Source of the DNA: Psammoneis japonica
Lineage: Eukaryota
NCBI GenBank assembly: GCA_008632985.1
Contig: QPGO01000271.1
Coordinates: 1-64,000, forward strand
DNA length: 64,000 bases
Direction: 5' to 3'
Of this stretch, positions 16,394 through 63,157 are shown one piece after another. A program made the position numbers and the translations under genes. A model generated the notes under the pieces. The model searched no databases. It worked only from the letters and a program-made list of their open reading frames with translations, and had not been told where the DNA came from. Every line of letters begins with the position of its first letter. Positions within the stretch are counted from its first letter, which is position 1.

Positions 16394-16417
16394 ACAGTTG
16401 CGCCAGCACCAAAAGGC

Positions 16418-18057: not shown

Positions 18058-19066
18058 GCTAAACCTGCTGGCACTGCACATTTGTCTGAGTGATTCTTGA
18101 AGGACACACATGTCTCTTTGTCATCTTCTGGAAATTCTGATGACAAAGCAACCACTGATTTGGACTTGCACGCTGACACGTGTGCTGTTGGGTCCAATTT
18201 TACAATGTGCTCTGATGTCGACAGAACTGTCGTGGTGCACCCTTGCTCTGAAGAGCATGCACCAATGGAAAATGTTCCCATTTGCATGGCTGCTGCTGTG
18301 TGGGTTGATCCAACTGATGGACAACCATGGCTGCTGCTGGTCCATGAGGCCATGTTTTTTGGAGACAAGATGACTGACACTCTCCTGTGCCCCAGCCAAC
18401 TGCAAGCAAATGGACCAATTGTCCATGACACCCCTCGCCAGTTTGATCTGACTGGCACACACTCTGTTTCTTTCCCTGACTCAAAGATCAGGATGCCATT
18501 GCAAATGCGAGGTGTTGCTTCAGTCTTTGATTCACACAAGCCGACAAAGGAGGATCTGGAGAACCTCCCCCGGCTGGAACTCACATCACCCCTGAGATGG
18601 GAGCCTTCTGCTGATGCCCTGGCGCAAAAGGAGGAAGCACATGCATGTGCCAGTGTGCGCCAAGGATCAGTGAAGTCTGATGGACCGTCAACGATGATGA
18701 ATGTGACCAGGTGTGTCGCTTCCAATTGCTCACATCAAATGTCCCATTACAACGAGAATGTCATTGTGGGTGCCAATGATGATGATTCTTTGCATCACCG
18801 CCTGGTTGCTCAGGTGAACATCTCCCACAATGATGCTGAGGGAGACGGGCCACATGACCGGCATGACCTGGATGTCCACCCGGATTGTGCCGAGCAGAAA
18901 CGGGTGCATGCACTGTGTCGTGCATCGACCATCACACCTGAGATGCTTTCTAAAAGGTGGGACATTGGCCTGACGGCTGCCAAGAACACCCTCAGAGTGA
19001 CGACCCAGGCAGGGGTCTGCAATGTCCACACACCATCCGAGCGGAAAGTCTGGAAGAAAGCCCCTT

Positions 19067-19236
19067 TGTCTTGTGTGGATGTTGTGAGCTAAAGAGGCTT
19101 GCGACTGCTCAGTGGTCCATGAGCTAGCTGCGTCAGAGATTCTTCGACATCATCTCTCTGAGTCAGCACGAATGAGCTCCATCTGTCCATCCGTCCGTCT
19201 GTCCGTCTGTCCTGCGAGCTCTAGCTGACCGTGACA
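19067..19236 (-). repeat. 3' LTR of Copia B
   Basis: TGTCTTGTG...GACCGTGACA; aligns without gaps to 28569-28738. Confidence 0.95.
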
Positions 19237-20159: not shown

Positions 20160-22102
20160 CACAGCGGTTTCCATGCAAGAATGGCAAGCATGTTTGTCTG
20201 TGAAAAAAATGTTCGGGTGTGCCAAATCAAACTGGAATCAGGAACTTTTTAATCTTCAAAGTTTTGAAAAAAGCACACTGTCACCGCACAAAAAAAAATT
20301 GTTGCTCAGAGCCGCAGTCACCATGAATCGACAACAGCCGGTTCTGCTTCATGTGAACTGCCGACGCTGAGGAAAAAATGAGATGTGTTGTCGTTCATGG
20401 CATTGTTGAGGTCACATGTCGTTTTTTCCTCAGTGCAAGATGTTTTGATGTCGTCGTTGTCAACATGGTTGACAATGGCAGACGGAATCTCGGTTGCGCC
20501 TTTTTTCGTGGAAATCATCGTAGATTTCTGCGCGGGGTTTGTGCTGGATTGTCGGAACAAGTTTTCGTCGATTTGTTGTCATGGATCTGACGGTGGCCTT
20601 GTTGATGGCATTTTGACTTGCCTCTCCCAGTGTCTCCCATGTTTCAGCTCTCTGTCGCATCTTGCTGTCATGCTGTGCAAAATTGTTCCATCTGTAGAAG
20701 CCCAGAGAGAAAAACACACGATCATTCGTGCCACTCCTGACGACGAGATTCATGCCACGATGATGGGACGAATGAGCTTGACTGCAGGGGTGGATGAAAA
20801 GTCCAGCATGGACTCTGCAATGCAGTGCAGTCTTGGCACTCTTGTTGAGACTTGGTGTGGTGGCATTGGAAGCATTCTGTCGGGATCATCTGAGCTCAAA
20901 TCAGCTCAAGCCGCTGTTCTCTGTCAGTCGATGAGAAATGCACCGTCGGGCTGATGCAGTGCAGCAGGTCGATGATCCAGGTGAGTTCACTTGATTGGTC
21001 TTACAAATTTAAGATGTTGACAGTGTGGACGTTTCCAACAGGTTGATGCAATGGAAATTTCTTGCTGGAAAGGTCCATCATTTCCAAACTGGGTCAAATC
21101 CTGCCATTCGACGCAGGCCATGAACCAACCGACATGCAGCAGTGGGCAATCATCTCAAGTGCTGTGGCTGAATCTTGCGCAATGCCCAGAGCAACAAGTT
21201 GTGTGCCCAAAGCAGCCACGCAGTGCTCCCAAGCACATTTCCCAGAGCAAACAGTGGTCGCTGACAGCTGAGAGCAAGGGTCTCAGCCAAGCGTTGCTTT
21301 GCAAGCAGAGGGTCCACCAAAGCACAGCAGCATCTGCTGAAAGAGACACAATGCCATGTTTGCTTTTTATCGTGTGCAGTCCTGCCACGGATGCAAAAAC
21401 ACTCGCATGACTGTCAACATCAAATCGTCTTGAACGGGGCAACTTCCATGTCATTGTCGTGCAGCTCGGCTTCCAGCTCAGCCTGTTGAGAAACCAATCG
21501 TCATTCTTGCCACTCAAATGGTCTGCGTTGGCACCAAGTCCATCAATCTCAGTGTCAAACTTGGCTTGAAGATCGCGGTGCGATCGTTCCTGACAACAGG
21601 CCCAGCTGCTGATTTCCTGAGCCGACGCAATGTGGCAATCGTCTTGGAATTCTCCAATTCCTCCCCGAGCTCTTCCGGAATGTCGTGACAGAATCAGCTT
21701 CCGTTCGGGACAAGATGAAAGACAATCAACAGACGATTTTTTTCAGGCGAGACGATGGAGAGGAAGGAAGCCAAAAAGGTGGCAAAGGGCAAACCTCGCT
21801 GTCGAGACAGAGACTGCACTGCAGAACAATGTTGAGGAGCCGGGTGGGGATGTTGGCGGGGAAGAAGGAACTGCTGGCTGACACAGTTGGCAAATTTTGA
21901 CTCACCTGTCTTCTCCAAATGGTGTGTCACAAAGGGGCGTCAACAATGCTGCAGAGTTGCATCTTCAATTGACAAAGATTGCCATCGCAATGGACTTGAA
22001 GACGTGCGATGTGCAATGAAATGAATCATCGGCGAGGGAAGGAGAAATGGGCAATGAGCACATTTCACTGTTCGCCCTGAAATGCGCGTTGAAACCGCTG
22101 TG
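20160..22102. mobile_element. Non-autonomous DNA transposon with CAC..GTG ends and 4-bp TSD TGCA (Chapaev/CMC-like), inserted in Copia B RT
   Basis: CACAGCGGTTTC at 20160-20171 and GAAACCGCTGTG at 22091-22102; TGCA on both sides; removal restores PDVA-MAVH. Confidence 0.85.
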
Positions 22103-23200
22103 TGCAACATCTGGTTGAGTCATTTGTGCCAGAAAGCTCATCTTTCCGATGACAGACCGGCAGTTCCACGGTTCTTGACGCTCCTGACCGTTCGTGTCAG
22201 GATGCAGCATTTGTGCTGCTGGAGCAGCCTTTGTTTGTGGCCTGTTCTGTGATGGTTCATTGTTGTGGGACCTCAGACCGAGGTCTTTCAATGTAGAATC
22301 AACAAGACCTGTCTGGGTCATGTGAATCTCGCCATCGGCGGTGTTGGCAACATCTGCACCGAGGAAAGCAGATGCATCGCCTTCGTCGGTAAGTTGAAAC
22401 TCGTCTTGCTTGAGTTCTTGTGTGAGTGCAGTTACAACATCGTTCGTTGGAGTGAAAACCAAACAATCATCTGTGTGTGAGTAGATGACACAGTCATTTC
22501 TGATGAATGGACATGGGTCCATTTTTGATTTCTTGAAACCGCGTCGTTCCAATCCCTTTGACAGTTTCTGGAACCAGTTTCGTGCAGCAGTTTTCGTGCT
22601 GAGTGAGTTCTTTTTCAGTTTGCATGCCATGTCTGGTGTGATGTTTCCATTTTCGTCTTTCACTTCCCACCCTTCTGGGAGTCTCACATGCACTGGTTCT
22701 TCCAGCTCTGCTTGTGGAAATGCTTGCACACAATCCACTTGTCTGCTTTTCAGACCGGTGATTGCTGCCAGACACAATGTCAGTTGTGCCATGCTCCATG
22801 CGATGACTGGGGCGAATGTGTCCCAACAGTCCATTCCATGTTGTTGTTTGGAGCCGTCAACGCATGTTCTAGCTTTACATTTTGAAAGCTCACCACTTGG
22901 TTTCCTTTTTCTTTTGTGTGACCATGTTGCATTTAACAACCGGTGGTCTTTTGGTGCTTCAGAACATGGCATGTGTTCCCATGTGTCCACATCTGCTGGC
23001 CCTTGTGTTTCTGGAACTTGGGCTTTTTCAAATTCGGCATGGTCTGGCACTCTTTTCATCTGGCCCTGGGTCAGGGTGTTGACGTCACCCAGTGCCGCTG
23101 CTTCGAAAGTGAGTGGACTGGATTCGTTCCACACATCTTCGTCGAGAAGCATGTCATTGTCTGCTGAACCCACAAGTGCCATCAGATGTGCGAGCTCTTC
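22103..23200 (-). pseudogene. Copia B reverse transcriptase (Tyr->Cys/His converted)
   Basis: WSHKRKR, SKCKAR, QQHGMDCWDTFAPV, QVDCVQAFPQA, catalytic HTDD (YxDD expected), WNCRSVIGKM. Confidence 0.92.
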
Positions 23201-23487
23201 ACACAGTTCAGCTGCAACTTCTTCATGGTGTAGAGGCATTGTGGTGCACGCGTTCGCATCAGGTGAGTCACTGTTTTTCGCATTGTTCTGCACTGTTGTA
23301 CAAGTCGCGTCGTCATCCAAACCTTTTTGGCGTTTGTGTTCATGAAATTGATGACGAGCACAGTCTGCTTCATCGTTCAAATGTTGGAGGGCTTCTTTCA
23401 TTGGCAAAGAAGTTGCAGCATCCTCTGGAGTTGCCACAGTTTGGGCCCTGGGTGACTGCATTGTCCACAATCAACGGTGTCGCATTG

Positions 23488-28738: not shown

Positions 28739-31700
28739 CCCTTGGCTTAAGTTCCCTGCTGCAAAGGGATGCTTCTACTCTGACCAGATGTTTTCGAAGG
28801 TCAAATTGACACATGGCAAGATGGGAGGAAGCGCACTTGCCAACGGAAGAGGGTGTGACAGGTTCCATCCTTGGAAGAGGAAACAGGACCACCCAAACGG
28901 CGTCATGTCATTCACACATGACGTTGGTGCACCACAAGTCCTTGTGTTGGTTGGCATGCCAGAAATGGCAGAAGGCCAGACCAAAGAGATTTGCAAGGAA
29001 TGCAGGATGCACCAGGAGGTGTCCACCCCGTGCAGCCCCTGGCAGAACCTGGCCAAGGCATCCATTCATGAGTTGAAGAAGAGAGTCCGTGTGACTCTAC
29101 GCTGGACTGGCGCTCACAGGTGACTTTGGTCCTGTGGCGCCAAATGGACATGTGACATCCGACGCATGATTGCAACCAGCATGTCGGGTGTGGGAGGGCA
29201 AGTCCCAGAAGAGGAGGTGACAGGTTCAACACCTGACATCTTGTCCCTCTCCCTCTTTGACTGGCATCAACCTGTCTGTTGCTGCACGCCTGTGGCGGAG
29301 TTCCCACATGAGAAGAAATGCATTGGCCATTGGCTCGGAGCAGCTGACAATTGCACTGACGACATGGCATTTGTCATTTTGACCGAATCAGGCAAGCCCA
29401 TCATTTGGAAGGATGCATGGGCCGTGCCGGAGGATGACCTTAAAACTCCGGTGATCCAGACGGATCTTGCATCGGTCGATCAAACGGCTTAGCATCCTGG
29501 AACAGGGTGCCAGTGCTGACTTCCCTGAACTCCCTGATGACTTCATGGACGAATGGGATGATGCCGTTGAACCCGTGGAACCCGACAACTCCAAACCGGA
29601 AGCTGATGAGCATGCCCCGGAAGGGCCAGATGAGCATCTCACAGCTCAAGTCATGTTGCCACGCGGAGGCGAGCTGACTCATGACAGGGTCATTGCATGC
29701 AAACAAGACAGCGATGGGGTTCCCATTGGTGCTGGGAACAACAACCCTGTCCTGGACTCGAGGACATGTGACATGGAATTTCCTGACGGATCCACTGATT
29801 CCCATGCTGCCAATGCAATTGCAGAGAACCCATTCACTCAGATCAACTCTGAAGGGAATGCCTGCCAGATCATGAAGGAGACAGTCGATCACCGACGTGA
29901 TGCCCGTGCCACGACGGCTGATGACGGGCACACAACGGCGTTTGGGTGGTCCTGTTTCCTCTTCCAAGGATGGAACCTGTCACAACCTCTTCCGTTTGTA
30001 AGTGCATTTCCTCCTGTCTTGCCATGTGTCGATTTGACCTTTGAAAACATCTGGTCAGAGCAGAGGCGTCCCTTGACAGCAGGGAACTTAAGCCAAGGGG
30101 CTTTCTTCCAGACTTTCCATTTGGTGGTGCACAGACATTGCGGACCCCTGCCTGGGTCGTCACTCCAAGGGTGTTCTCAGCGGCCATCAGGCCAATGTCC
30201 CACCTTTTAGAAAGTGTCTTGGGTGTGATGGTCAATGCACGACTCGAGGTCGACAGTGCATGCACCCGTTTCCACTTGGCACAATCCGGGTGGACATCTG
30301 GGTCATGCCGGTTGTGTGGCCCGTCTCCCTCAATGTCATTGTGGGAGACATTCACCTGAGCAACCAGGCGGTGACACAAAGAATCGTCATCATTGGCGTC
30401 CACAATGACGCTCTCATTGTGATGGGATGTTTGATGTGAATGAATGGAGGCGACACACCTGGTCGCATTCATCATCGTCAACTGTTTGTCAGACTTTGCT
30501 GATCCTTGGCGCACACTCGCACATGTGCGTGCTTCCTCCTTTTGCTCCAGGGCATCAGCAGAAGGCTCCCATCTCAGGGGTGATGTGAGTTCCAGCCGGG
30601 GGAGGTTCTCCAGATCCTCCTTTGTCGGCTTGTGTGAATCAAAGACTGAAGCAACACCTCGCATTCGCAATGGCACCCTGATCTTCGTGTCAGGGAAAGA
30701 AATGCAGTGTTTGTCAGTTGGGTCAAACTGGCAAGGGGCATTGTGGACAGTCAGTCCATTCTCTCGCAGTTGGTTGGGGCACAGGAGAGTGTCAGTCATC
30801 TTGTCCCCAAAAAACACAGCCTCATGGACTGGCAGTGGGTGTGGTTGTCCATCAGTTGGATCAACCCACACGGCAGCAGCCGCGCAAATGGGAACATTTT
30901 TCATTGGCGCATGCTCTTCGGAGTGAGGGTGCACCACGACAGATCTGTCGACATCAGAGTGCATCATAAAATTGGACCCAACAGCACACGTGTCAGCGTG
31001 CGAGTCCAAATCAGTGGTTGCTTCATCATCTGGATTTCCAGCAGATGACAAAGAAGTGTGTGTGTCCTTTGAGAATCGCTTGGACAAATGTGCAGTGCCA
31101 GCAGGTGCAGCGACATTCAGTTCTGTGCCTTTTGGTGCTGGCGCAACTGTTCATTCCTCCTTCTGCGGTTTCTCATGTGCACTGCGTCCGAACTGTGTGC
31201 CTGCATTGGTGGCAGGTTTGTCGAACTCTTCGGAGTCCTTTTGTTCATCAGCAGGTTGAGGATCAAGCTCGGCAATGGCCACTTTCTTAACAGCGCACGT
31301 GTTGGCATCAACCGATTCAGCCTCTGAGGATGCAGCTGCAGCTTTGCATTTCTTTTTGGCTTTCTTGGCATCGTGGAGCTTCTTGACTTGCTCTTGCTCA
31401 GGGCCATCAAGAGCACTCCACTCTTCAATGGGACAATGGCCTGCCCGGATCCTGGGCTTGTCCTTTTTAGGTTGGTGCTTTCCGCCAGGGTTTCCATGCC
31501 GGTTGTTGCGGCGTTGGATGGACGCGATCCCACGAGTGTCAGTGTTGTGGTTCTTGGCATTTTCTGCCAGGGTCTTCATGTGCTGCTGGCATGCTTCGAA
31601 ATCGCCAGCTTCGTTGGGTCTCCATCTACCACACTCTTGCCAGTTTCCAACCTGGGGTCGGAGACACCCTTTGGAAAGTCAGAGACCTTCTTGGTCTCGG

Positions 31701-34700
31701 CCACCGGTTCATCAAGCTCGGACAAGTCGTTGTGAACTTTTTGATGACGCTGAACGCACAGTTCTTTGCATTTTCTTTCAGAGTCTTCATGTGCTGCTGG
31801 CATGCTTCAAAATCCACCAGCTTCATCAGGTCTCCATCCACTGCACTCTTGCCAGTCTCCAACCCAGGGTTGGAGATGCCCTTTAGAAAGTCAGAGACCT
31901 TCTTGGTCTCAGCCACCGGCTCATCAAGCTCAGACAAGTTGTTGTGAGCCTTTTGATGGGGCTGAGTGCACTGGTCGAAAGTAAATCGACCCCGTCCGGT
32001 GCACTTCGCAGCAGCGATCTGTGCATGAGCACGGTTCTTTTGGGTGGTGGCAGCAGCCAATCCTTCCGCCTGCCTCTTGAGTGCAAAGAAAGCAGTGCGA
32101 CCATCGCGGCTGCAATTGGAAGGTTGGACAAAAGCCCATCTGGGCCCCCCATCACCAACTTCTTCAAGAGATCATGAAGGCATTGCCTGTCCTGCGTGCA
32201 CTGAGCTCCTGCAAGTCAAGCAGCAGCAATGATGTCCTCGTCAATGGCAGTGTGGGTGGCAGCCAACATTTCGCCGGTGACGTCTTCATGCTCCCCAACC
32301 AGGTAGATGAGGGGCACACTGGTGACAGCACTGTGGTGGTGACGCAGTTCGGTCTCCAGCAACTCTTGGAAGGCAGGCCAGTCACACAGATTCTTGAGCT
32401 CCATGGCCGTTTTGGTGGCCGATTCGTCATCCGAGTCTGCTGACTTGAATTGCTCCAGTTCCGTGAGACGTGCCGTCCATGTTCCAACAATGTCGCCAGC
32501 AAAGAGAGCAGCGGACGGCTCTTGGTTTTGGGCTCTGCGTCAGTCAATCCATGTGCGCAGTGCCTTGAGCTTGTGATTCGCCAGGCATGGGAAGCGGACT
32601 TGGGGGTTGGCGGCGGCATCCACGATGCCCTCAGTCATGTCAGTGATCTCTGTCAAAGGGAGCTGTGTGGGTGCATGTCTGTGCATTGCATCCACAATGT
32701 GCAAGGCAAATGGCAAAGGCTGCGGCAGCGGCCATGGTGCACCAGCAGTTGTTTGCGTTTTGATGCGTGAGCATCCACTTGTGTGAGTGGAGGAAAGTGA
32801 GAAAAATGTGTGGTTCTCATGCCGATTTGGTGGTTTCTACTTGGCGAACCCGCGAGCGGGCGGCGTCACTCCCAAGTGACAATTGGCAACAGACATGTGT
32901 CCACATGTGCAGTGTTGTGTGTGATCAAATGACAGATCTCAACACATGAATTGCCATGTCATCTAAATCACGAATGTTCACATGCCTTGCCCAACATGTT
33001 CCATCCATGTGATCAAACATTCCGCACACCAACGTCATGTCTGACGGATCTGCAGTGTGCGACTGTCACACACATGTTTGTGATCATGTGTCATTTGCAC
33101 GTCAATCGCACCACAGTCGTGGATGCGCACAAAGGACAGAACGATCACACAGAGTTGATCGGATGTCGAGAATTGCAAATACGATCGATTGACGATGTTG
33201 ACATCTTGCGTGTCAACAGCAATCGCATCCGGACAATCTGTTGTCACGAATGTGTTCTCCGAAAGGCCTTTTGTCTGTAGAAGCAGTGCAGAAGCTTTAG
33301 GCCATTGAGAACTCGTTTGGAGAAACCAAAAATCACAGAGCAAAATTTGACCTTATAATTTCCACTTTTCGCACACTATTCTACTTTCGTTTACACTCGT
33401 TCTTCGAGCATAGTGCATTGTGTATAATGCAGCATGCGACTGTTACATGCATGTTTATGATCATATGTTATTCACATGTCAATCGCACCACAGTCGTGGA
33501 TGCGTACAAAGGACAGAACGATCACACAGAGTTGATCGGATGTCGAGAATTGCAAATACGATCGATTGACGATGTTGACATCTTACGTGTCAACAGCAAT
33601 CGTATCCGGACAATCTGTTGTCACGAATATATTCTCCGAAAGGCCTTTTGTCTGTAGAAGCAGTGCAGAAGCTTTAGGCCATTGAGAACTCGTTCGGAGA
33701 AACCAAAAATCACAGAGCAAAATTTGACCTTATAATTTCCACTTTTCGTACACTATTCTACTTTCGTTTGCACTCGTTCTTCGAGCACAGTGCATTGTGT
33801 CTGTGGTAAAAAGCACGAAAAATGAAAATTTTAACTAATGTGCCTTTGCAAATTCTTCTATGAACAGGAACGAATCGCATCAGTTCTGCTGGAATCGATT
33901 TCCGAGCGGAAGAAGCTCAAGCCGAGCAGTGCCTCAAGATGGAACGCTGTTTTTCGTCTACCAGACAAGAGGATTCGCTCCAGTGCAGTCTGTTCCAAGT
34001 GTCTCAGGACCAAGGACTCTACAAGAACACAGCATTGTCGAAACATCCACACCAAGTCATGGTTGGGTAGAATTTCAAGTCTTGAGTCGATCAGATCCGA
34101 GAAATACGTCTACCATGCAAGGAGAGACTATTGGAGAGTTTTTTGAGACCGAATCGATGATCCTCGAGTCCAAGGAGCAAGAGGGAATCGTTGGAAAGTA
34201 CCTCAAGCGTCTCATAACTCATGTCCTCCAAGAACTGCACTTCAGAATCAGAGTTGTTATTTTCGAGATGATCTGAAGAAACCCAAGGCTCTCAGCAGCA
34301 AGAGAGTGCCTGTTCGACCCAAGAGGTCAATGATGAGAGTCTGTGCGACCCTCAGATCGATTCTAAGTCGAATCTAGCGGGAAACCGAGCGCTGATTTAT
34401 CAGCCATCACTCGCACCGCAAGGATGGCAGCATCAGCCTGCTGTCCAAAACATTGGGTTGTTGGATCATGCCCTTGACGAGCTGATTGAGGTTTGAGTCG
34501 TCTAGAGGTCGGCGAGGACGTCTGTGACAAAAAAAACATGTCAATTCAGGCTCTGATAGCGCAGTTGATTCCACAATCAAAAAGGTTCCAATTTTGGTTC
34601 CAAAAATGGTCTCCCACATGGTGCCACCACAATCCAAAGTGAATGCAAGGTCTCATCTTTGAAAAAAGAACACCTGCATCACGGATTGAAGCTGTTCTAA

Positions 34701-37589
34701 AAATGAACTAGCAAAAGAGTGCAAGGGTGACTCTGAAAGAGACCCAAAAATGCGCCGTTCAAATGGCAATCGCACGCGGTCGCGTCGCGACAACGAAAAT
34801 GCCGCTCGCAAAAAAAGAGATGAACGTCATGATTGATCAGGTGGTTCAAAAAACACTCAAAGCAAGTTCCTTGAACAAAGAAAAAGAGCACAAGGGCAAA
34901 GAATCAGATTCTGACACCCTCAGTGAAGAAAAATGCCAAATTGATTGGATGATCCAGACTGAATCCGAAGAACAATTTTGGTCTGTTCACGAATTGCATG
35001 CTTTGCTGGATGTTAGGAAGCCTGGAAAAAAGGCAGAAATAATTCACACTGGTCCAGGAGTCATCATTTACATGATTGCTTCCTTGGGAAAGGAGAGAAA
35101 AAAAAAAGCATCTACGTGTTCCTGTCGATGACGGAACATCGTCAACCACAATTTTGCGCAAATTCGTGCGAAAGTTGAGAACACAAGAATCCGCCACCAA
35201 AAACTTGGGAAACCAAGGGTGAGCTCTTTACGACTGACAGTAAACACCGAATTCAGTTCTCACTGTGCGAAATTTAAGGCATGCTGATGTTCAAACAGCA
35301 CATGTTGAAAACACCAAATTTTCTTCAGGTTCAAATGATGTGATCATGGGACGCGACTTAATGTCCAGTCCTGCAAGTCACACTGGACTACGCAAATGAA
35401 GAAATCTAATGGGAAGAAGCAATTGCCTTATGAAGAATGTTCATACACTCTTCGATGCCGATGTTTTCAAGCTGAAAACCGATCACATTGAAAAATGTGA
35501 CGCCGTGAATGGAGTCAACAACGGAACCAATGGTCCTCGACTCACATCATCACGCCATCGATCTTAATCAAGTGACAACTACGGCGATGCATCTAACCCA
35601 AATGAACACAACCAACTCAATCTTCTTCTCAAGAGGTTGAAATCGTTTTGAAAAGTTCCTCAGACGAATGTGTGGGAAGCATCAGTGGATCTCATCGTGG
35701 AAAATCTGACGCGATTCCACGACGCGTGAGAACCTTCTCCTATCACAGTCTTTGGAGGCGTCCAATCAAAAGGAGTTTGACCCATTGTGAAAGATTGAAG
35801 TCTTAAGAATGAAATTGCTCTGAACAAGTCGCTCTGAGACTCATTGTCCAAAGAAAACAGGTCGAGTTCGACCGCACCCGACACTCAGAAGCTCAGTGTA
35901 AGGTTCGTGCAGGTGGTGTATCCTTTACCCAATATTCAGGAAATGCCATTGAAGCAAGAACGTTTCATGTGTGTAATCTATTTGATTCAAACATGGAATG
36001 CCACCATGTCAAATAAAAAAAGCACACGTCGTGCTCACACGAAAATCATGCCGTGGGGAGAAAATGAGCACTGTGGACTTCCAATGAGAATCTATAGAGC
36101 CCCAGACATTTTTATACAACACTTGAGTGAACTCATAACAGGTTTGAAGTTGTCAGAACGACCACATGTGATCGTTTGTGCCTGACAAAAGTAACTTCAA
36201 AATGTCACCTGTGCAAGTAACAGCTCAACACGGCATTCAAACGACTAGAACAGTCGCTTAGAAGGTTAACAACAAAAGTCCTTCACTATTTAACTTGAAA
36301 TAAACTATCAAGACTTCCATACGTAACGACATGCATTCGATTACAAAGAAAATGGAGGCGATTCAAGCCATCGCAACATGAGAAAAACGTAAAGAACACT
36401 ACGACATCTCGTCGTTATACGTTACTACTATCGAGACATGTAGTCTCAACGATCTCCTGTACAATACTAGCCAGATTCACCTCAATAAAGGTCAAACGGC
36501 AAAAGTACAAGTACGGAACGAAAAGTCTCCGAAAATATGGAGCGTGTCAAATCAAAAACTACATTGTTATCATACACGTATTTCAATGTTATACGTTACA
36601 ACGGAAAAAAGAACTTCTGTCCATAGTGAAAACACTTAAAAAATTCCGAAATATTATATTGTTTGGCCAACAGATTTATGTATATATACGGATCATAAGA
36701 CACAACGGACAAAGTCATACGTTGACGACTTACAATAGAAAACTTCAGTCCCCAATTAAAATACAGCGAGGACAAGGCGAACATCGTCGCGATAGACGCG
36801 ATCAGCCGACTTACTATAGAAAATTGAATCCTACGACAATGTCCTACCGTTAAAACGGGTTAAAGACATTCCCTCCAAATTGTCGGACGCGACATATCAT
36901 ACGAACACTTTTCGTGGAGGCGAGCGAGATCGAAAAATGCTCATGTCACAAGGATAAAATCGCCTTTTTAAAGGACGATTTAGGAAAAAACAGTGACAGA
37001 TTGGTGTACATTATACGTATCCACTTCACACTGGCAAAAGACAATCTCACAACACCCGTACGGTTGTATTGTACAATGTACGAGGCAAGACATTAAAATA
37101 TACATCATGTCGACACACGAGATGTGCCAAAGATCTAGAAAAAGAAAAGAAAAATGGACATTTATCCACTTAGTGCACGAAACCAGTGCCTTCGGAATGA
37201 CAAAATAACACCGGTATGTCAGAAAGAAACATCTAAATAACGATTAAAATCCAACTGATAGATGGTTGAAGTACAAAAAAAAAATCCATAATGGAATTCA
37301 TAACCATCACAGGATTGATTGTCAAGACGAAATGGTCATAACATCTTTGACCATCGTTTATTATTACTTATGAAACGTGGTAGTGCAGCAGAGCAATATA
37401 AGACTGACTAAATAAAAAGGAAACCATGGAAAACAGACAGACGTGATGGTTGCTTTTGAGAAAAAAGCAAAAAACCATCACGCGCACCGCAAACCGCAGC
37501 AGCACCATGGAGGTGCCGCTGTGTTCATAAAAAGCGACCGTCACTGGGACAACATCACACGGTTAAAAGCATTGACATAAGGTAATGCG

Positions 37590-38020
37590 AATCTGTCGAG
37601 TGTTCTGGTGGTGTTTGTTTTTTGGCATCATCTAAAATTCTTGTTGCAACACTCTGTTTAGATGGACAGCATGTTTGTGGTTTCTCTGCGACTCGGCTAC
37701 ATTCATGAATCGACCCTCACTGGAACAATGTCACATGATGCAGAGCATGGACATGACTCAATGTGAATGTGACGAGTGTGATGGTTGTGTTTGTTTTTTG
37801 ATGTCGTCTAAAATTCTTGTTGCTGCACTCTGTTTGGATGATTTTGTGTGGTTTCTACGCAACTCGGCCATGCTCCGTATTGATGAAGCGACCATCACTG
37901 GGTCAATGTCACATGATTAACATCATGGATGTGAGGTAACATGAATGCATCGAGTGTGATGGTTGTGTTTCTTTTTGGTGTCATCTAAAATTTTTGTTGT
38001 CACACACTCTGTTCAGATGG
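37590..38020 (+). repeat. Three ~177-bp subterminal tandem repeats in the Sola-like element
   Basis: GAGTGT..TGGT.GTGTTT..TCTAAAATT.TTGTTG..CACTCTGTT at ~37598, ~37773, ~37952. Confidence 0.8.
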
Positions 38021-38051
38021 ACAGCGCCGCCGACGTGATCGCTCCAACCAA

Positions 38052-40346
38052 TCAACCGTGCCAGAAGGGACCATGTGGACGCGCCAAAATTTCCTCAATG
38101 GTAGAACAGTTAAGAGTGGAGTGAAGGGTTTGCATGTGCTGTTGTACTTCAGCAGCTGCAGTTGGATGCAATGCCGCAATCGGAAGCATTTGTTGTTGTA
38201 GACCATGCGGGTTGACGAAATTCGGGTTGACGAAATGCGGCGGCGGCGGGGCGGCAGCAGCAGCTGGTGCTGCAGGTTGCTGGGCTGTAAAATGTGGTTG
38301 AGTGGCAGGAACAGCTGGGGGTTGAGTGGACGCAGCAGCAGCAGCGGCAGTGGGAGATTGTCTTGATCTCGAATTGGAAACAGTCTTTTTGCTCCTTTTG
38401 GCCTTGTCTGCTTTTGACTTGTTGTGTCTGTCGATCATTGCTTGTGGTGGCATGGGGCAAATCTCATCCTGACACTCCACTGGAACATGCTTCCTCCATT
38501 TTGTCCCAAGCTCTATTTGTTTAATGTCGGGAATTCCAGGAAATGGAATGACCTGGGGTGCCGCCTGCAAGAGCTCCATTCTGTTGCTGTTGGTCCCAGG
38601 CTTTTTGAATTCTCTTGTGGCAGTCTCACCTTGATCCTCCTCCCGGCAAGACACCTGAATTTTCATGTCAGTTGGCGAGGCTTTTGTCACAGAAAAGATG
38701 TGGCTCTTGTGGACGGTGCTGGGGGCGAAGCGTCGATACAATGAATCGAGTTTCTTATCCCAGTCTTGGAAGTCTTCCTCGTCCACAGCGGTTGCGGTAG
38801 TGTTCTCGTTTTCATTCAACAATTCCATCATTTGCTTGAAGGTGTGGACATTGGAGTCTCTGCACAGCTTTTTCAAGATGTCACACATCCGGTCGCAAGG
38901 GTTCTTTGTGTGCCCGACTACAAGAAACACAAACTGTACGGTTTGACAGAATCCCCGCTCAACCAAGTAGAGGGCCAGCCGAAGAACCATCCTGTTCTTG
39001 TTCTGACCCGAGCAGTTGTCCACAACAATGGCAAGCTTTACTCGAATTTGCTTTGCTGTTCCATCATCATTGACCTCCAAATGCCCTTTGTCCTTTAGAC
39101 ACTTCACAACGAGTGATGCGACGTTGTTGCCTCCTTTTTTACCTTGGCCCTCGTGGTGCACGTATGCTTGGAGCAAGTTGTCTTTCATGTTGACAAGTCC
39201 AAAACAATTTACATTCAATGGAGAAAAGCAGTGAGTGTCACCTGATTGCTCATTGCCAAGGTGTGGAAGGTCCATGTTTTCGGAACAGTCGCCAACAAGC
39301 ACGTCAATAAGTTCCTGTTCAAGGCATTCGGCAGTGAGAGAATTGAACAGTTCTCTCTGAGCAACAGCCTGTTGGATGTGGATTTGAGCTTTTGCTGCTG
39401 CCTCCTCTCTCCTCAGACATCCATTCACTGGAGTGTCACTGCTGTTCAAAGGACGAGGCGACGAGAAGCAACGAAAAGCATGCGACAGCACAAAGCAGTC
39501 AGAACAAACATCCTCCCTAGCTTTAGGAAGAACCAGCTTTGGGTGGCTTCTCTTCCAGAAAGAACGGAAAGTTTCAAAAACAACTGTCTTTTGCGGCTCC
39601 ACGTCTTCTGCTGCTTGTGTCAATTCAATCGCCCCTTTGTCATTCTTGAGCTTGGCTTTCCATCCTCGTTCGCCAACCCATTTGCCGTACAGTCGGCGAG
39701 CCGTCCAATGGGTTGGGAGCTCCAGCAGCTCCTCATCATCATCCCTGGTCCCTGTTCCGACTTCTAGTCGAACAAACCTTGTGGCTCGAGGAGAAGCAAG
39801 TTCCATCATGTCTTTGAAAAAAACATGCAACGACGTTTCCACATCTACCTTCATTCTTGCATTTGATGGTTTACCCTTGTTGCCATGCGACGTCACCATG
39901 TTTGATTGAATCGCCTCTTTCACCCTTCTGTCAGCTTTTTGACGTACATTCACAATGTGCTTGAAAGCATTTTTGCATGTCAACACGTCGGAGCCCGGTG
40001 GCTTGCCCGCAGCTGGAACGGGAAGAAATTTCGCGGACTGGCATGACCGACATTGTTGCAGGATGTAGCTCTCCCTGTCGTCTCTGCTCTTGTGTGCCAC
40101 CTCATCCAACATGAACTTTGCAATGCAGGGAAGCCACTCTGTTCGCGTCCGAAAAGCATGCAAACATTCGCACCTCGTTGGCCGCCCCCGAACATCCACA
40201 CACTTCGGGCTGTCAAACACATTTTGAAGAAATTCCTTGCACATCTCAAGAGCATCCTCACGTGAAGGGTGAGGCTTAACTCTGAGCTTTGCATGCAGGC
40301 TGCCAACTGAGTCAGACCGGTTGTTGCCGGCATCGTCGTCATCCAT
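38052..40346 (-). CDS. Sola-type DDD transposase, 764 aa, open but partly Tyr->Cys/His converted (probably inactive)
   Basis: DVCSDC, DCSENMDLP, DTHCFSPLNVNCFG, EGQGKKGGNNVAS, DNCSGQNKN, FLVVGHTKNPCDRM. Confidence 0.85.
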   Translation of the reverse strand: MDDDDAGNNRSDSVGSLHAKLRVKPHPSREDALEMCKEFLQNVFDSPKCVDVRGRPTRCECLHAFRTRTEWLPCIAKFMLDEVAHKSRDDRESYILQQCRSCQSAKFLPVPAAGKPPGSDVLTCKNAFKHIVNVRQKADRRVKEAIQSNMVTSHGNKGKPSNARMKVDVETSLHVFFKDMMELASPRATRFVRLEVGTGTRDDDEELLELPTHWTARRLYGKWVGERGWKAKLKNDKGAIELTQAAEDVEPQKTVVFETFRSFWKRSHPKLVLPKAREDVCSDCFVLSHAFRCFSSPRPLNSSDTPVNGCLRREEAAAKAQIHIQQAVAQRELFNSLTAECLEQELIDVLVGDCSENMDLPHLGNEQSGDTHCFSPLNVNCFGLVNMKDNLLQAYVHHEGQGKKGGNNVASLVVKCLKDKGHLEVNDDGTAKQIRVKLAIVVDNCSGQNKNRMVLRLALYLVERGFCQTVQFVFLVVGHTKNPCDRMCDILKKLCRDSNVHTFKQMMELLNENENTTATAVDEEDFQDWDKKLDSLYRRFAPSTVHKSHIFSVTKASPTDMKIQVSCREEDQGETATREFKKPGTNSNRMELLQAAPQVIPFPGIPDIKQIELGTKWRKHVPVECQDEICPMPPQAMIDRHNKSKADKAKRSKKTVSNSRSRQSPTAAAAAASTQPPAVPATQPHFTAQQPAAPAAAAAPPPPHFVNPNFVNPHGLQQQMLPIAALHPTAAAEVQQHMQTLHSTLNCSTIEEILARPHGPFWHG

Positions 40347-41989
40347 TGCGATTGTGGACGAAAGACAGTTGCTGCTGCAGGAAAATGGTGTGCCATTCTA
40401 TTTTCTGAAAAAAATAAAAATGGCTGCCAAAAGTGCACCAGCGGCAACAACAGCAGCTTCTTACGTGGCTGACAAAGTGCGTGGCATGCAATTTACGCGC
40501 ATTTTGAAGAGTGCGCGCATCCGGCATGCGATCCCATGGAAACCCCAAGATTGGTGCCATTTTTCAAGAAATCGGACCCACAAAATGACCGACACATCGT
40601 TTGAAAGCATTTTTGCTCTAGTTTTCACTGATGCCAAAAGCAAAAAACTCAATTTTTGGCCCAAAATTGGCAAATGGTGACCTTTCTATTTAGTCAGTCT
40701 CACATGGCACACAAAGCAAGCCCGCCAAACTACATGAAATCCACAAGCAAGCAAGTGAACGCCATAATTAAGAGCGTACATTAAGTGCTGGGCACGATGC
40801 TATGTACAATCGACATCAGGAAAAACACTTACTCCAGGACAATTAGTCCTTGTGTTCATATCAACAAGAACGTCAATGAGAATACTCGACGTAATACCAC
40901 ATATATACACATTAAGTGAGAAACAAACAATGTCACTCTCAAAAGACATTCGGAAATTGGAACGGCCCTATATTGCCTATACAAAACAACAACAGTCATT
41001 GCTAATGGCACAATACAGTGAAAGTGGAGACATTGTTGACACTGTCGATGTCCGTCGAACAATCCACTTACAAATGACTCTAATGTGCAATTAGGGAGGC
41101 GAATGCAGTATGCGACTGTTACACACATATTTATGATTATATATTATTTATATGTCAATCGTACCACAGTCGTGGATGCGTGCAAAGGACAGAACGATCA
41201 CACAGAGTTGATCGGATGTCGAGAATTGCAAATACGATCGATTGACGATGTTGACATCTTACGTGTCAATGGCAATCGTATCCGGACAATCTGTTGTCAC
41301 GAATATATTCTCCGAAAGGCCTTTTGTCTGTAGAAGCAGTGCAGAAGCTTTAGGCCATTGAGAACTCGTTCGGAGAAACCAAAAATCACAGAGCAAAATT
41401 TGACCTTATAATTTCCACTTTTCGTGCACTATTCTACTTTCGTTTACACTCGTTCTTCGAGCATAGTGCAGATCACAGCTCTGGTCTGAAGAGCACATTG
41501 TTCACATTCATGAACATTGATGTGTGCAAAGGACTCGGTGATCACGCGAGCAACCATGGGACCAACATGGCGCTCACCACAAAAATTGATCGATCGCAAC
41601 AATGCCATCGTGCCGTTCGCGATGCCCATTCCAGGCGATGAACATCATGGTGCATTGGCTCTGACAAAGTGAACAAATGCTGCCATGACAGCCAAGAATT
41701 TGGTGCAAAACAAGACAGAGTGTTGAACAGCATCAGCAGGTTCTAGAATTGTGAGATGTCACACTGCCGGGGCCACCAAATGAGCGACAGTGGACCAATC
41801 GCCAACAGTGCACAAACTGCCTGTGTTCGTGACAGTGTGTCAGCATTTGTTCACTGGAGCAGGCCAAACAACTTGTGCACCCACACTGCAATGATTGCCA
41901 AGACAAGCTTTGCCTTTTGCTGTGGTCCACTGGCTCTGACAGACATTTGTGTGCATTTCAATTGTGACATTTTGAAAAAATTTGCAGGT

Positions 41990-42964: not shown

Positions 42965-44140
42965 TCATTTTTTATTTTCGTTTTTCCAGATTTTGTTGTT
43001 TGTTTCAAATTGTGTTTGCACACCAGTTTGATTGGTGGCCATTGTGGCACTTGCTGCCGCTCCATTGCCTGCAGCCACTGCCTGCAATGGCAGGTCCTCT
43101 CCCATTGGCGCCGCCCATCCTTCCTCTCTCTCCTTTCTCTTTTTCTCTCTTTTGCACTTCTTGTTTTCCTCCTCAGACAAGTTCATCTTCTCTTGCCTTC
43201 TCTCCTTGAACCATGCACCGAATCCCTGGTTGTTCTCTCTGTCTTTCACCACCCACTGACGTGGATTGTTGCACTTCTTGATCCCCTCCTTGCTCCATCC
43301 TTGGCTCCTCTTTGCTGACTCCCCCACCGCCTGCACTGTGCACTTTGCAGGAGCAGCATCTTTCACAGTCAGCTTTCTTCTCCTTGCAGCATTTTCTTCC
43401 TTTTCCAATTTCTCTGCCATGTCCTTCACCTTGTTGCAGTGGTTCAAGTGCGCTGGCAGAGCAAACACCTTCGACGAAATGGAAAGCCACTCCTGAAGCA
43501 TGTCGGTTGTGCTTCTGCCAAACTGCACTTGTCTCACCACTGTTGGCACAACAGTTTCCAAGAACCACACATGTGTGTCCTTGTCATTTCTTCCCTTTGT
43601 CAAATCTTCATAATCCACCAGCGATCCCTCCAAAGCAGCAGCTGCACAGACAAAAGCAAAGGAAGTGACACTCATCTCGTTGAACAATTGCCTCCAACAC
43701 AATCAACAGCATGCACACATCTGCTTGCCTGTCATTCTTCTCCCAATGTTGTCCTGCACATTGTTCCTCTTTCGGTTGAGTTTGGTCCTGAACACCTCTT
43801 TGCATTCTTCTCAGAATGCCTCCGGTGAAGATGCCATGCTCCTTGACTCCTGCAGAACCAATTTCATGCAATCTCCTCCCACGGCGAGTTCATGATCAAA
43901 GATTGTGAACTTGTGATGTGGCCAAACACTCTCATTGATTGCCTTTGTCAACATCGATGCTGACAATTTCTTGCCCACCACCGGTGCATGATCCAACATA
44001 AGACATCCCTCTGTGGGAGTCACCGCCGAACTTGAGTCCCCACCTGTGCACTGGAATCTGTTCAATTCCCCATGTTCATTTCTTTGTGCATGAAACAAAG
44101 CTGCCACCGCAGGACTCATGGTGACTTCATGTGACACCAC
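42965..44140 (-). pseudogene. TE accessory ORF (GWSxEG family, probably Plavaka/CACTA-associated)
   Basis: VWPHHKF..KLNRKRNN..WFLETVVPTV..SISSKVFAL..QGWSKEGIKKCN..VVKDR; family assignment from recall, not from a search. Confidence 0.5.
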
Positions 44141-44772
44141 ACAGACAAATCCAATTCTGTCAGTTCATCAGCAACTCTTTGTCATGTCCTTTCTCAACCT
44201 CTCCTGTGAGAACCGCATCCTCCATCTTTTTTACCTTCCCAATGGCTTCCTCTCATTTGGAACTTCCCTCCTTTCCTGTCACTTTGTGAAAGGCAAGTTT
44301 CAAACTGAGCACACTTTGCATGTGATTTTCTTGGTTTTGTCGTTGCTCGCGTGTCTTCTCTTGATTCAAACAGGTCTTTGCATCATTTTTGAGTGCTCAT
44401 CCCCAACCCCATGTTTGAATTTCCACCAACGTTCCACTGTTTTGAATTGTGTGCCTTTGCTGGCCAATCCAATGCACCAATGAAGATTGCAGTGTCATTC
44501 AAATCAATGTCAAACCACATGTTGCATCTCCTTGTGTTGGTGCATGCATTGTGCCTGCTTCCTGATGCAACATCAGTTTCATTTGGTTTGTCAAACCTCC
44601 CACTTGTTTGTGCAAATCCATGTCGCTCATTGTCTCACGTCAATTTGTCCCTGTCTCAATGGGTCATTCTCTCTGCTTCCCCGACACCACATCTCTCCAG
44701 CTGCTCTCTCCATTGCCCAAATTATCCAATCCACTTTCAGTGGCTGCTGAAGGGTGTCAATGTCACTGAGAT

Positions 44773-45504
44773 GTGGTTGTTGTGAGTCATTCCCATCATG
44801 GGAACGCACGCTCCCTCTGTCGCAATCACATGCCGCCAGTTGATGATCAAATTGGCCATTTTGCTGGTGGTGGTGTGGAGCCACACGGTGGTGTGGCAAG
44901 CTTTGCCTTCTTTGCTGAGGTTGTTTGTAACCCTGCTCTCCTTGCACCCCAAACTCAAAGCCCTTTTAATTTCCTCGATGTTGGTGGTGGTGTTGGCAGT
45001 TTTGCGATTGACTGTCGTTTGCTTGTTCCTGCCTGCAATGCCTGCAGCATCAAGTTCCACCACCCCCGTCATGATTTGGGCTCTCAGTGGTGCAATGCCA
45101 TCTGGCACAACCATGCCAGTTGCTGTCCTGCCCTGATCAATCAGGACTTCCTCTCTGAAGATGACGCTGTGCGTCGGTTGTGCCATCTGAACAACTTAAA
45201 GATTTTCTGCAACAACTGCAATGGGCGAATGCTTTTTGACAACAACACAACACAGAACCAACTCAAGGAGACACTGTCCAATGAGTGTCCTGAAGGTGCT
45301 GTCATCATTTCACTGGACGTGATGTTTTGTGTGCACACCCGCAAATGGAGGCATGGAGCATTCTTTGTTCCTGCCCATCCAGACAATCTGTCGTGGGGAG
45401 GCGGTGTCGACAGGCACCTGCTTCACAAGTGCACCAAGAAAAGAGATGATGCCGTGGAGCCAAGGGATTCCACCAGGAACGACCTGGGGTCTGACATCAA
45501 ATGA
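44773..45504 (+). pseudogene. DOT1-like class I SAM-dependent methyltransferase domain
   Basis: In order: PHG (YG), FLDVGGGVG motif I, SIKFHHPRH, NQDFL, KIFCNN, PEGAVIISL, NLSW; parallels DOT1 YGE/DLGSGVG/GDF/IFVNN/GxRIVS/VSW. Confidence 0.65.
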
Positions 45505-45552: not shown

Positions 45553-46100
45553 TTAATGCAACTTTCTTCTGTGTGAGCAATGCATTGTCAATTGGCCCTT
45601 TGCACAAACCTGCTTTTTACCTCTGCTGACTTGCTGCTTGGCCAGTTTTGCATTCCAACAACTGCTTGTTCGCACTCTTGCCATGTCGAAATTGTGGACT
45701 GGACATGCCATGTTCCTTCGACCCGAATTCGTTTTGTTGGGCAAAGCTCGGTGCAACGTTCTTGCATCAAAAACAAATGCAGTGCCTGCTTCTCCAACCA
45801 GCAATTGTTTTTCCAAACCCAACCTGACCAAGTGTCTTTCACGTTCCTTCTCATTCAATGTTGCCTCACAACCAACTGGCCATGTCTCAACTGCACCATT
45901 GTGCTCCATTGTGTCATTGAGGAACAGAAACATGGTGAAAATTTTGTTGCCAGGTGACAACTTTGTTTCCACGTAATTGCGATGAATTTCCCCCTTTGAC
46001 CAGAAGTTTGATCTTGAACTTGAAGCAGGAGCGTTTGCCAGTGTGTGCCGGGATGTCATTCTGCATGAATCACCTGCCAGGAGAAAGCCAGGAATTAACT
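45553..46100 (-). pseudogene. PhyH-like 2-oxoglutarate/Fe(II) dioxygenase domain
   Basis: IHRNY (HxD; CGC-AAT derivable from CGC-GAT by CpG decay), TMFLFLND..NGAVETWP, GEAGTAFVFDARTLHRALPN..R. Confidence 0.7.
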
Positions 46101-47844
46101 CCAACATTTTTTCTGCCAGCTCAATGCCTTCCGCCTTGTCCTTTTTGTCAATGGCAAACTCACCAACAAAACGGTGTCCTTCCTTCTCTTGCTCACTGCT
46201 TGGTGCCTTGTTTGCCAGTGTTGTCATCTGGTTGAGTGGGGGTTGTGGTGTTTTGAATTTTTGCAAGCAGCCTTTTTTTCCTTCCTGGTGCACTCTTTCT
46301 TTGGACCCAGCCATCTTGCTCTTGACGACATGAGATTTCATTTCACCTGGGTGTGTCAGCAACTTGCCATGTTTCTGACATGACGTTGTTGGCCAATGGG
46401 CAAATTTCCGGCATCCATCAACAGAACACTTTCATGCCATTCTCTGAAAATGCCGGTTCCACCAAATCAAATGGCACCCAGTCTTTTTTTGAGTGGAGCA
46501 GACCCAATTCAGCAAAAGTCCACATCCATTGCTGTGCAACAAACACGGCTTTCTTGCAAAATGTGTGTTGCCAATGGCAGCCCATCTGTCGGGTGCACCA
46601 CAGACATTTTTTTCATAAACAGCCCCATGTGATGCAATCTTCGTTGATCCTGTTTGCTGCATGATCTCATTGAATGGGCCATCCCAGCCATCTCAAAAGT
46701 GCAGAAAACAATTTGGTCACACACTGTCTTGCCAGTGTTGTTGTGAGATGTTTTCATGTCGACACCGCGGCAGACACAAAGGAACAGCCACCATCCACCA
46801 TTCATTCCACGTCACAAACTCTTTTGGAAGAATGCACACAATGAACAATTGCAAATGACAGGTGTCACTTTTTCATCAATGCACCTGTCTGTCAACAGAG
46901 CAATTTGGCATCACTTTTTTGTCATTGCAGCTGTGTGTCAACAGAGCAATTTGGCATCACTTTTCTGTTGTTGCACACATTTGTTGACAGAAGAATTTGG
47001 CGTCAGTTTTTTGTTAATGCACGTGTCTGTCAATGCACACCTTTGGCATCATTTTTTTATTTGCACACTTGACACCAGCCTGCACATTGTCGTGATGCAA
47101 AGCACATCTCCCGCAGCAAACCACACTCTCCCAAATCTTGTCCAAGTCACTGATCAATGCATGTTGAGCAGTGAACAGACAACGTTGGGGTGACTCTGTC
47201 TCTTGTCCTCTGCAGCCTTGTCATTTCCTTTGCAAAACAACAACCTCAAAATCATCCCACCCCAAAGAATGCCACCCAATCACTTGCCTGTTGCGCCACC
47301 TTGCCAAAATGGAACCAACGAATCTCTTTTTCGTCCAGTGCATCACACTTCTTTCCCAATGACATTCCACCTGACTCAACCTGACATTGCTTTGCCGCTG
47401 CCATGTCCCAAAACAGCGTTGACCAACGATCCATCTGGCCGTTGTCTCCCGCTGGTGCATCTGGCCCCGTTTGGCACAGAAAACAGCCTTGACACCAAAT
47501 TGAGGCTCTGCATTGTTCTCCCACACGTTGGGTGAGTGAACGCGGTCATGTTTGTTCATCACTCAAAAAAAGGGGTTTGACAGATCACTTGATCCGCGGC
47601 ATTGTGCTGATGATGTTTTTGATGCAAAAATCTTTGTGTTCAAGAGCAGTGGGAAGAGCAATGTGTGCAACCCAAACCACCTTGGTGAATTTGCAAAATG
47701 GCTGGCACACCCAAGCTGCATTAGATTGGCTTTGAAGGAGGCGGCCCTCCCAGAGCTGGCTCAACAAAAGAAAAAGAGGCGCGCAGGAAAATCATTGATG
47801 CTCGCCACTTCCAAACCAAAAAATGCAAAAGATCCACAGCGGCT

Positions 47845-60850: not shown

Positions 60851-60948
60851 AAGCATCAAATTGGCAAAGAATTTGAACAAATGTGAAGATGAGGGAAAAT
60901 GTGCAATGATGGGCCAAATGGCAGATTGAAGCAGACCAGATTTGCAAA

Positions 60949-63140: not shown

Positions 63141-63157
63141 ACAGCAAAGATTTTGGT

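Follow-up and report, generated by a model that had tools for sequence, protein, structure and literature searches.

Probable post-integration hypermutation of TpA dinucleotides in mobile DNA of Psammoneis japonica

Introduction

Why do the three long terminal repeats (LTRs) of a single retrotransposon differ from one another at TA dinucleotides and almost nowhere else? This question is raised by a stretch of 64,000 nucleotides from Psammoneis japonica (GenBank assembly GCA_008632985.1, contig QPGO01000271.1, positions 1 to 64,000), hereafter the window, in which an LTR retrotransposon with three LTRs occupies positions 33051-41470. A first-pass annotation of the window had described these LTRs as caught in the course of a conversion from TA to CA or TG, with single sites in all three states and almost no other differences, and had described an old copy of the family at 11.5-11.8 kb as fully converted. 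It had also taken the LTRs as the most direct evidence for the direction, the strand symmetry and the speed of the change. Here, we count the changes, ask in which direction they went, and weigh the processes that could have produced them.

A similar signature is known from Bigelowiella natans. According to the available text of a preprint (Mettrop et al., bioRxiv 10.64898/2026.01.13.699255), 231 of 302 new nuclear point mutations in this organism fell in integrated giant-virus and virophage regions, and 230 of these 231 were A>G or T>C changes, all on TpA. The same text gives a rate about 1000 times the background, reached in some lines only, and an enrichment of reverse-transcriptase and DDE domains among TpA-poor coding sequences; an ADAT2-like DNA adenine deaminase is proposed there, on prediction only. 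Our full-text search of the literature found TpA-specific A:T>G:C hypermutation in no source beyond this preprint.

Results

Each of the three LTRs (LTR1 to LTR3, from left to right) is 367 bp long, begins with TG and ends with CA, and their pairwise identities are 93.7-95.9%. The LTR strings quoted in the first-pass annotation were recovered from the contig exactly where it had placed them. Because GATC stands both to the left of LTR1 and to the right of LTR3, the three LTRs can be assigned to one insertion; matching flanks are missing for the LTR2-LTR3 pair and for LTR1 alone.

When the three LTRs were aligned and substitutions at TA sites were counted against all others, 29 of the 367 columns were variable, and every one of them was a transition. 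These variable columns lie almost entirely (27 of 29) within 28 slots occupied by TA, CA or TG, and the two that remain are CG/TG differences, both found in LTR1 alone. All three states are present at four slots, and CA together with TG at two more, so that the earlier description of single sites in three states and of few differences elsewhere is borne out. TA is kept in at least one LTR at 26 of the 28 slots, and the many other CA and TG sites of the LTRs are invariant. Summed over the copies, conversion has reached 34 of 84 slot-copies, compared with 2 of 933 other site-copies (Fisher p = 6e-38), and the ratio of 189 has a range of 52-1,559 as a Poisson interval on 2 events. The speed of the change can thus be given as a relative rate only, with TA slots changing about 190 times as often as other sites. 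The converted slots hold 18 CA and 16 TG (binomial p = 0.86), as the proposed strand symmetry would have it.

Conversion is unequal across the LTRs, with 19, 11 and 4 of the 28 slots converted in LTR1, LTR2 and LTR3, respectively (chi-square p = 0.0002), and the difference between LTR1 and LTR3 is fivefold (p = 1e-4). It is also unequal within LTR1, where 18 of the first 19 slots (to about 33254) are converted against 1 of the last 9, and the switch takes place within about 25 bp. The products in LTR1 follow one another in the order TG, CA, CA, TG, TG, CA, TG, TG, CA, TG, CA, CA, CA, TG, CA, CA, TG, TG, CA. Because CA and TG interleave in this way, they do not form the strand-coordinated runs expected from a single-strand deaminase in one pass. 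Along the whole element, the share TA/(TA+CA+TG) is 0.00-0.17 at 33.75-36.25 kb and 0.25-0.45 at 36.25-37.5 kb, and the right edge is marked by a fall from 0.25 to 0.02. Since LTRs of the same age stand at such different degrees of conversion, the process is patchy and is not a clock.

The old copy of the same LTR family extends over 11.4-13.9 kb on the minus strand. At the 28 LTR slots it shows no TA (0/28) and has CA or TG at 21 of 28, which agrees with its earlier description as fully converted. Ordinary divergence has also accumulated in it, with differences from the young LTRs at 71 of 307 other aligned sites, and many of its CpG sites have decayed.

The direction of the change was examined from the LTR slots and from the coding sequences of the window. 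The occurrence of both CA and TG at single slots implies TA as the ancestor or as an intermediate, and by parsimony over the slots a one-way AT>GC process needs 34 steps, compared with 47 for a one-way GC>AT process. In the coding sequences, homologues from public databases served as outgroups, and a column was called a tyrosine column when at least 60% of the homologues have tyrosine there (DUF7869 alignment). Across four transposon open reading frames (ORFs) of the window, 38 conserved tyrosine columns now hold 4 Tyr, 16 His and 11 Cys, and conserved columns other than tyrosine are kept at 65-79%. For example, in the DUF7869 ORF compared with 24 homologues (29-38% identity), the 15 tyrosine columns contain 3 Tyr, 4 His, 4 Cys and 4 other residues, while 159 of 216 other conserved columns are kept (p = 5e-5). 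The copia-like ORF at 16394-18097, compared with 17 homologues, has 1 Tyr, 5 His and 6 Cys at 12 such columns, with 171 of 216 other conserved columns kept (p = 9e-7), and its two sister copies show 4 His and 3 other residues at 7 columns and 3 His and 1 Cys at 4 columns. Tyrosine content is at least 1.47% in 130 of 130 database homologues and 0-0.64% in the window ORFs.

A change of TAY codons to CAY (His) or TGY (Cys) fits the loss of TA and cannot be produced by C>T. The end state also lacks the stop codons that CA>TA changes would make, which again gives TA to CA/TG as the direction. The direction and symmetry drawn by the first-pass annotation were thus confirmed by two separate counts each, namely by the parsimony steps and the 27 of 38 tyrosine columns now reading His or Cys, and by the near equality of CA and TG and of His and Cys; a high speed, in relative terms, was borne out as well. 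The same annotation had named ancestral TG or CA in outgroup copies as the outcome that would speak against it, and here the result is ambiguous: the old copy does show CA and TG, but as the derived state. At this locus, the change runs from TA to CA/TG, is specific to TpA, treats both strands alike and is patchy.

The depletion extends through the window beyond the young element. The observed to expected ratio (rho) of TA is 0.11 in the window and 0.01-0.11 in each 2-kb bin outside 32-42 kb, and the window-wide values are 1.64 for CA and TG and 0.54 for CG. In the 55.4 kb outside 32.9-41.5 kb, there are 196 TA against 3,560 expected (rho 0.055), and with both strands summed, the same flanks contain 218 TAA, 86 TAG and 2,593 TGA. 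Because TAA and TAG are nearly absent, long ORFs occur in all frames: the 64 kb hold 81 ORFs of at least 150 amino acids, in all six frames, mostly overlapping and with 0-1 tyrosine. The ORFs of the flanks (1-32900 and 41500-64000) are mostly by-products of TA loss and not genes.

The TA dinucleotides surviving in old DNA are strongly skewed in context. TTAA accounts for 63 of the 196, while no ATAT is left against 694 CA/TG equivalents, no ATAC/GTAT against 1,500, and one GTAC against 801. This skew may reflect the preference of an enzyme or the way in which new TA arises. An additive 3'-neighbour rate model fitted TTAA, CTAG, CTAA, ATAG and ATAC and was rejected, as it failed for GTAA/TTAC, CTAC/GTAG and ATAA/TTAT.

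Two other compositional features were seen. CpG rho is 0.22-0.30 at 58001-64000 and 12001-14000, 0.5-0.8 elsewhere and 0.8-1.1 in the young element, and this uneven depletion suggests decay by cytosine methylation alongside the loss of TA. At 2001-4000 and 43001-45000, a GC skew of -0.18 to -0.29 occurs together with an AT skew of -0.21 to -0.28.

The coordinates of the young element and of the other features are collected in Table 1. The 10-bp gap between LTR1 and LTR2 begins with the first 6 bases of the interior that follows LTR2, and the arrangement suggests either that a tandem element has lost its first interior by deletion or that reverse transcription gave an aberrant product. The interior of the young element gave no Pfam match at an E-value of 0.01 or lower, either as ORF pieces or in three read-through frames (with X at stops), and a weak RT_RNaseH_2 match (E = 0.033) lies at 36299-36850. 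Set beside Ty3/gypsy-like LTR retrotransposons, the young copy has the appearance of a derivative that is degraded or non-autonomous.

The DNA transposon nested in this interior has inverted ends at 37393-37427 and 40674-40708 that are 83% complementary, and two of their six differences are at TA/TG positions. At one end of the transposon, 37532-38025 consists of about three tandem-like copies of a unit of about 176 bp, 75-79% identical. Other copies of the LTR element without the nested insert must exist, because four contigs built from a public sample (run X1) join 37397 to 40714. The DUF7869 protein of the transposon has 109 database relatives, mainly from marine metagenomes, and 108 of them have E-values of 1e-40 or lower; the last has 4.5e-7.

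A Pfam scan of the 137 window ORFs of at least 130 amino acids found further transposon domains, including a retroviral SH3-like domain. The weak match to PhyH is the sole non-transposon Pfam match in the window, and the ORF carrying it (45556-46431) probably stems from a gene that has decayed or from the cargo of a transposon. Rfam gave no matches within the window at gathering thresholds. A fragment of the dinoflagellate spliced leader matched twice with 3 mismatches, where chance would give 1.78 matches, and this lead was given up. The best database relatives of the copia-like family are 48-49% identical, and all relatives of the ORFs searched (DUF7869 and copia-like) are at 49% identity or lower; the few that are named are all diatoms (Amphora, Phaeodactylum and Fragilaria). 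Overall, the window gives the impression of a graveyard of eukaryotic transposons.

Table 1. The young LTR element and other features of the window.
Feature	Position	Strand	Remarks
Left target-site duplication GATC	33047-33050	+	Same four bases directly after LTR3
LTR1, most converted	33051-33417	+	19/28 TA slots converted (10 CA, 9 TG)
Spacer, 10 bp, TTGTGTATAA	33418-33427	+	Between LTR1 and LTR2; first 6 bases are those after LTR2
LTR2	33428-33794	+	11/28 slots converted (7 CA, 4 TG)
Internal region, degraded pol	33795-37392	+	36852-36962 matches the integrase region of the old copy (13745-13856)
Nested DNA transposon	37393-40713	-	35-nt inverted ends; DUF7869 ORF
DUF7869 ORF, 781 amino acids	38055-40397	-	Pfam E = 3e-19
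3' internal remnant	40714-41103	+	Purine tract AGGGAGGCGAA at its end (41103), abutting LTR3
LTR3, least converted	41104-41470	+	4/28 slots converted (1 CA, 3 TG)
Right target-site duplication GATC	41471-41474	+	Same as left flank
Old copy (3' internal end and LTR)	11445-11925	-	73.6% identity over 454 bp
Integrase remnant of old copy	13260-13856	-	Integrase_H2C2 E = 4e-9 (ORF 13260-13817); zero Tyr in 186 amino acids
copia-like family, three copies	16394-18097; 18094-19089; 29873-31150	+; +; -	74-81% protein identity
copia-type reverse transcriptase RVT_2	21968-23470	-	Pfam E = 2.7e-30
Phytanoyl-CoA dioxygenase / 2OG-Fe(II) oxygenase (PhyH), weak	45556-46431	-	E = 9e-5; 1 Tyr in 292 amino acids

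The sequence itself was compared with the k-mer contigs of run X1. Two contigs match TA-poor stretches without mismatch, over 277 and 285 bp; the 285-bp match is 44710-44994, with low depth and 3 TA. Because these contigs are clean, a strand-discordant misreading of a modified base is contradicted. Among the copies of the LTR family in run X1, 547 of 629 changed places are transitions; copy numbers cannot be read from the summed depth of the contigs. A conserved 33-base word of the LTR gave 0 matches in metagenome contigs. Comparison of the young interior with the old copy by purine/pyrimidine recoding and blastn was abandoned, since it returned hundreds of spurious matches and E-values in two letters are meaningless.

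Discussion

In our judgement, this pattern probably arose through enzymatic hypermutation that acts on TpA in mobile DNA after integration. A young LTR retrotransposon with three LTRs would have inserted once among old, decayed mobile elements, and the nested DNA transposon would have arrived afterwards. After integration, TpA would be changed to CpA or TpG, as an A:T to G:C transition in one or the other base pair of this palindromic dinucleotide, and positions outside TpA would be left nearly untouched. Such a process would strike both strands equally and in interleaved order, and it would act in patches of a few hundred bases to kilobases. It would prefer TA with a 5' A or a 3' T, as well as GTAC, and would be slowest at TTAA. 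Once completed, it would have reduced TA to about 5% of expectation, TAA and TAG would be nearly gone, and Tyr codons would read His or Cys. A DNA-acting adenine deaminase with a preference for a 5' T, which would convert A to hypoxanthine, is our first choice for the enzyme; a deaminase is most likely, as also proposed in the preprint on B. natans (10.64898/2026.01.13.699255). We infer that its action is aimed at mobile DNA.

Several observations weigh against this explanation. The nested transposon arrived later than the LTR element, and yet its share of TA is lower (0.02-0.12, compared with 0.25-0.45 in the adjoining DNA). Either its family was already depleted before the insertion, which we prefer because its transposase has lost most of its tyrosines, or the rate was higher on that element. 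No host gene was recognised by Pfam among the 137 ORFs of at least 130 amino acids, so there is no spared control. At one of the six mixed slots (alignment columns 274/275) the old copy has CG, and this slot may owe its states to CpG decay rather than to TA loss. For the contexts GTAA/TTAC and CTAC/GTAG, the additive 3'-neighbour model predicts only about a tenth of the survival that is seen. The independent support from run X1 is weak, because this run may be the very sample behind the assembly of the window. Finally, it is from the likeness of the signature that a mechanism shared with B. natans is suggested.

Explanations that place the change in the genome as a whole or in the other base of the pair have to be compared with a targeted deaminase. 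A constitutive context bias from TA to CA/TG, arising in replication, repair or DNA modification and not aimed at any target, would let every sequence free of selection drift to a TA-free state. Such a bias would account for the depletion of all 55.4 kb outside the young element (rho 0.055), for the mismatch-free, low-depth contig at the depleted stretch 44710-44994, and for the lack of a spared host gene among the 137 ORFs. It does not explain why LTRs of one insertion stand at 19 and 4 of 28 (p = 1e-4), why LTR1 switches from 18/19 to 1/9 within about 25 bp, or why the TA fraction ranges from 0.00 to 0.45 along one element, and in B. natans the remaining genome mutates normally as far as the available text goes (10.64898/2026.01.13.699255). 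We therefore regard a genome-wide bias as unlikely. The chemistry could also lie in the thymine. Because TpA is palindromic, T>C and A>G on the opposite strand cannot be separated from the sequence alone, and a T of TpA that is oxidised or modified (5-hydroxymethyl- or 5-formyl-uracil, or a base of the J type) would pair with G and give T>C. 5-Formyluracil is mutagenic toward T>C, which adds to the case for such chemistry. Reports from the 1980s on a dinoflagellate describe 5-hydroxymethyluracil in place of T chiefly in TA and TC contexts (available text of PMC11071213), and this base has been tied to transposon silencing (available text of PMC11572971). However, a sequence preference was not found in Breviolum (PMC11071213), such a base is without evidence in P. 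japonica, and the only study of the signature, in its available text, favours an adenine deaminase, on prediction alone (10.64898/2026.01.13.699255). Thymine chemistry is thus a possibility that we take seriously and consider rather doubtful.

Three further explanations, namely C>T changes as in repeat-induced point mutation (RIP), a sequencing artefact and RNA editing by ADAR, are each contradicted by tests on this locus. With C>T changes, CpA and TpG would have turned into TpA in young repeats and the old copy would be ancestral. The CA and TG of the old copy at places where the young LTRs have TA, the lower G+C of the young element (0.39-0.46, compared with about 0.52 in the flanks) and the high repetition of the family in run X1 could all be read in this sense. 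However, slots with both CA and TG would then require TA or an unseen CG as intermediate (47 vs 34 steps), C>T cannot turn tyrosine codons into those for His or Cys (27 of 38 columns), the TAA and TAG stops that it should create are almost missing from the old DNA, and TA is retained in at least one LTR at 26 of 28 slots while other CA/TG sites are invariant. This direction is very improbable. An artefact, in which old DNA has a modified base in TpA that is misread as C or G and TA is not lost genetically, deserves equally little credence. Base-calling at modified motifs can give extreme context-specific deviations, and the supporting run may come from the sample that was itself assembled; against this stand the k-mer contigs of that run, which agree fully over 277 and 285 bp, and the old copies, in which ordinary divergence is found as well (71 of 307 sites outside the slots). 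In B. natans, moreover, the changes were heritable in Illumina-sequenced lines, according to the available text (10.64898/2026.01.13.699255). A-to-I editing of element RNA by an ADAR-type enzyme, fixed through reverse transcription and integration, would be in keeping with the 5' U preference of ADAR and its action on repeat-derived double-stranded RNA (available text of 10.64898/2026.01.13.699255). Editing before integration is at odds with differences between LTRs of one insertion, which were identical at the start since they come from one template, with the equality of the strands (18 CA and 16 TG; 16 His and 11 Cys), and with the effect on a DNA transposon and its inverted ends. The favoured 3' neighbours here are T and C, whereas ADAR favours G. 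We hold such editing to be extremely improbable.

If a TpA-editing defence does operate in a second organism besides Bigelowiella, as tentatively proposed below, it would be a widespread eukaryotic genome defence and not the curiosity of one alga. A change from A:T to G:C at one dinucleotide runs counter to the usual G:C to A:T bias, and the preprint on B. natans describes it for viral inserts only. The locus offers a natural time series, in which conversion has reached 14%, 39% and 68% in the LTRs of one insertion and 100% in an old copy, and it adds retrotransposon and DNA-transposon targets, a saturated end state and a read-out from Tyr to His or Cys. Any candidate enzyme must reproduce the interleaved strands, the sharp patch borders, and the erasure of ATAT, ATAC and GTAC while TTAA lingers. 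There are also practical consequences for annotation: transposon proteins lose the likeness to their own families, TA-free DNA gives long spurious ORFs in six frames, and ages from LTR divergence will be badly overestimated unless TA slots are masked.

Among known systems, decay of 5-methylcytosine at CpG also feeds an excess of CA and TG, and 2 of the 29 LTR differences are of that type. Unlike the process seen here, it accounts for only 2 (perhaps 3) of the LTR differences, and a rough estimate, with about 24 CpG per LTR, puts the change per site-copy at TA slots about 14 times above that at CpG. APOBEC3 and ADAR resemble the proposed process as deaminase-type editing against retroelements, and the A on which ADAR and ADAT act has a U on its 5' side (available text of 10.64898/2026.01.13.699255). 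In contrast to the present case, in which integrated DNA of both strands and also a DNA transposon are affected, they act before integration, on cDNA or RNA, and are strand-specific. RIP of ascomycete fungi is similar in that dinucleotide-specific transitions arise after integration on both strands, degrade repeats and leave a strong dinucleotide skew. However, RIP makes TpA from CpA and TpG, raises A+T and creates stops, whereas here TpA is lost, G+C goes up and stops vanish.

The closest likeness is to B. natans, as described in the available text of the preprint (10.64898/2026.01.13.699255). In both cases, the changes are A:T>G:C only and on TpA only, with both TpG and CpA as products; the rate is far above the background, the action is uneven (episodic in B. 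natans), and low TpA together with high CpA and TpG remains as a trace. The signature is the same, and the locus adds a striking new instance of what had been reported from one organism. It differs in its targets, which here are an LTR retrotransposon, a DNA transposon and old copia- and gypsy-like elements, and in its extent, with a rho of 0.055 over 55 kb compared with 0.45 in a viral insert of B. natans, where just 124 clusters of at least 3 kb are given for a genome of 95 Mb. In addition, the changes here are read from standing sequence, while those in B. natans were seen arising de novo. The words LTR, retrotransposon, context, flanking, TTAA and tyrosine are absent from the text of the preprint that was available. 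We tentatively propose P. japonica as a second organism besides Bigelowiella in which a TpA-editing defence may operate on a grand scale, as a mirror image of fungal RIP. Such a defence could conceivably erase practically all TpA from transposons over tens of kilobases, on double-stranded DNA, in patches and with a preference for certain flanking bases.

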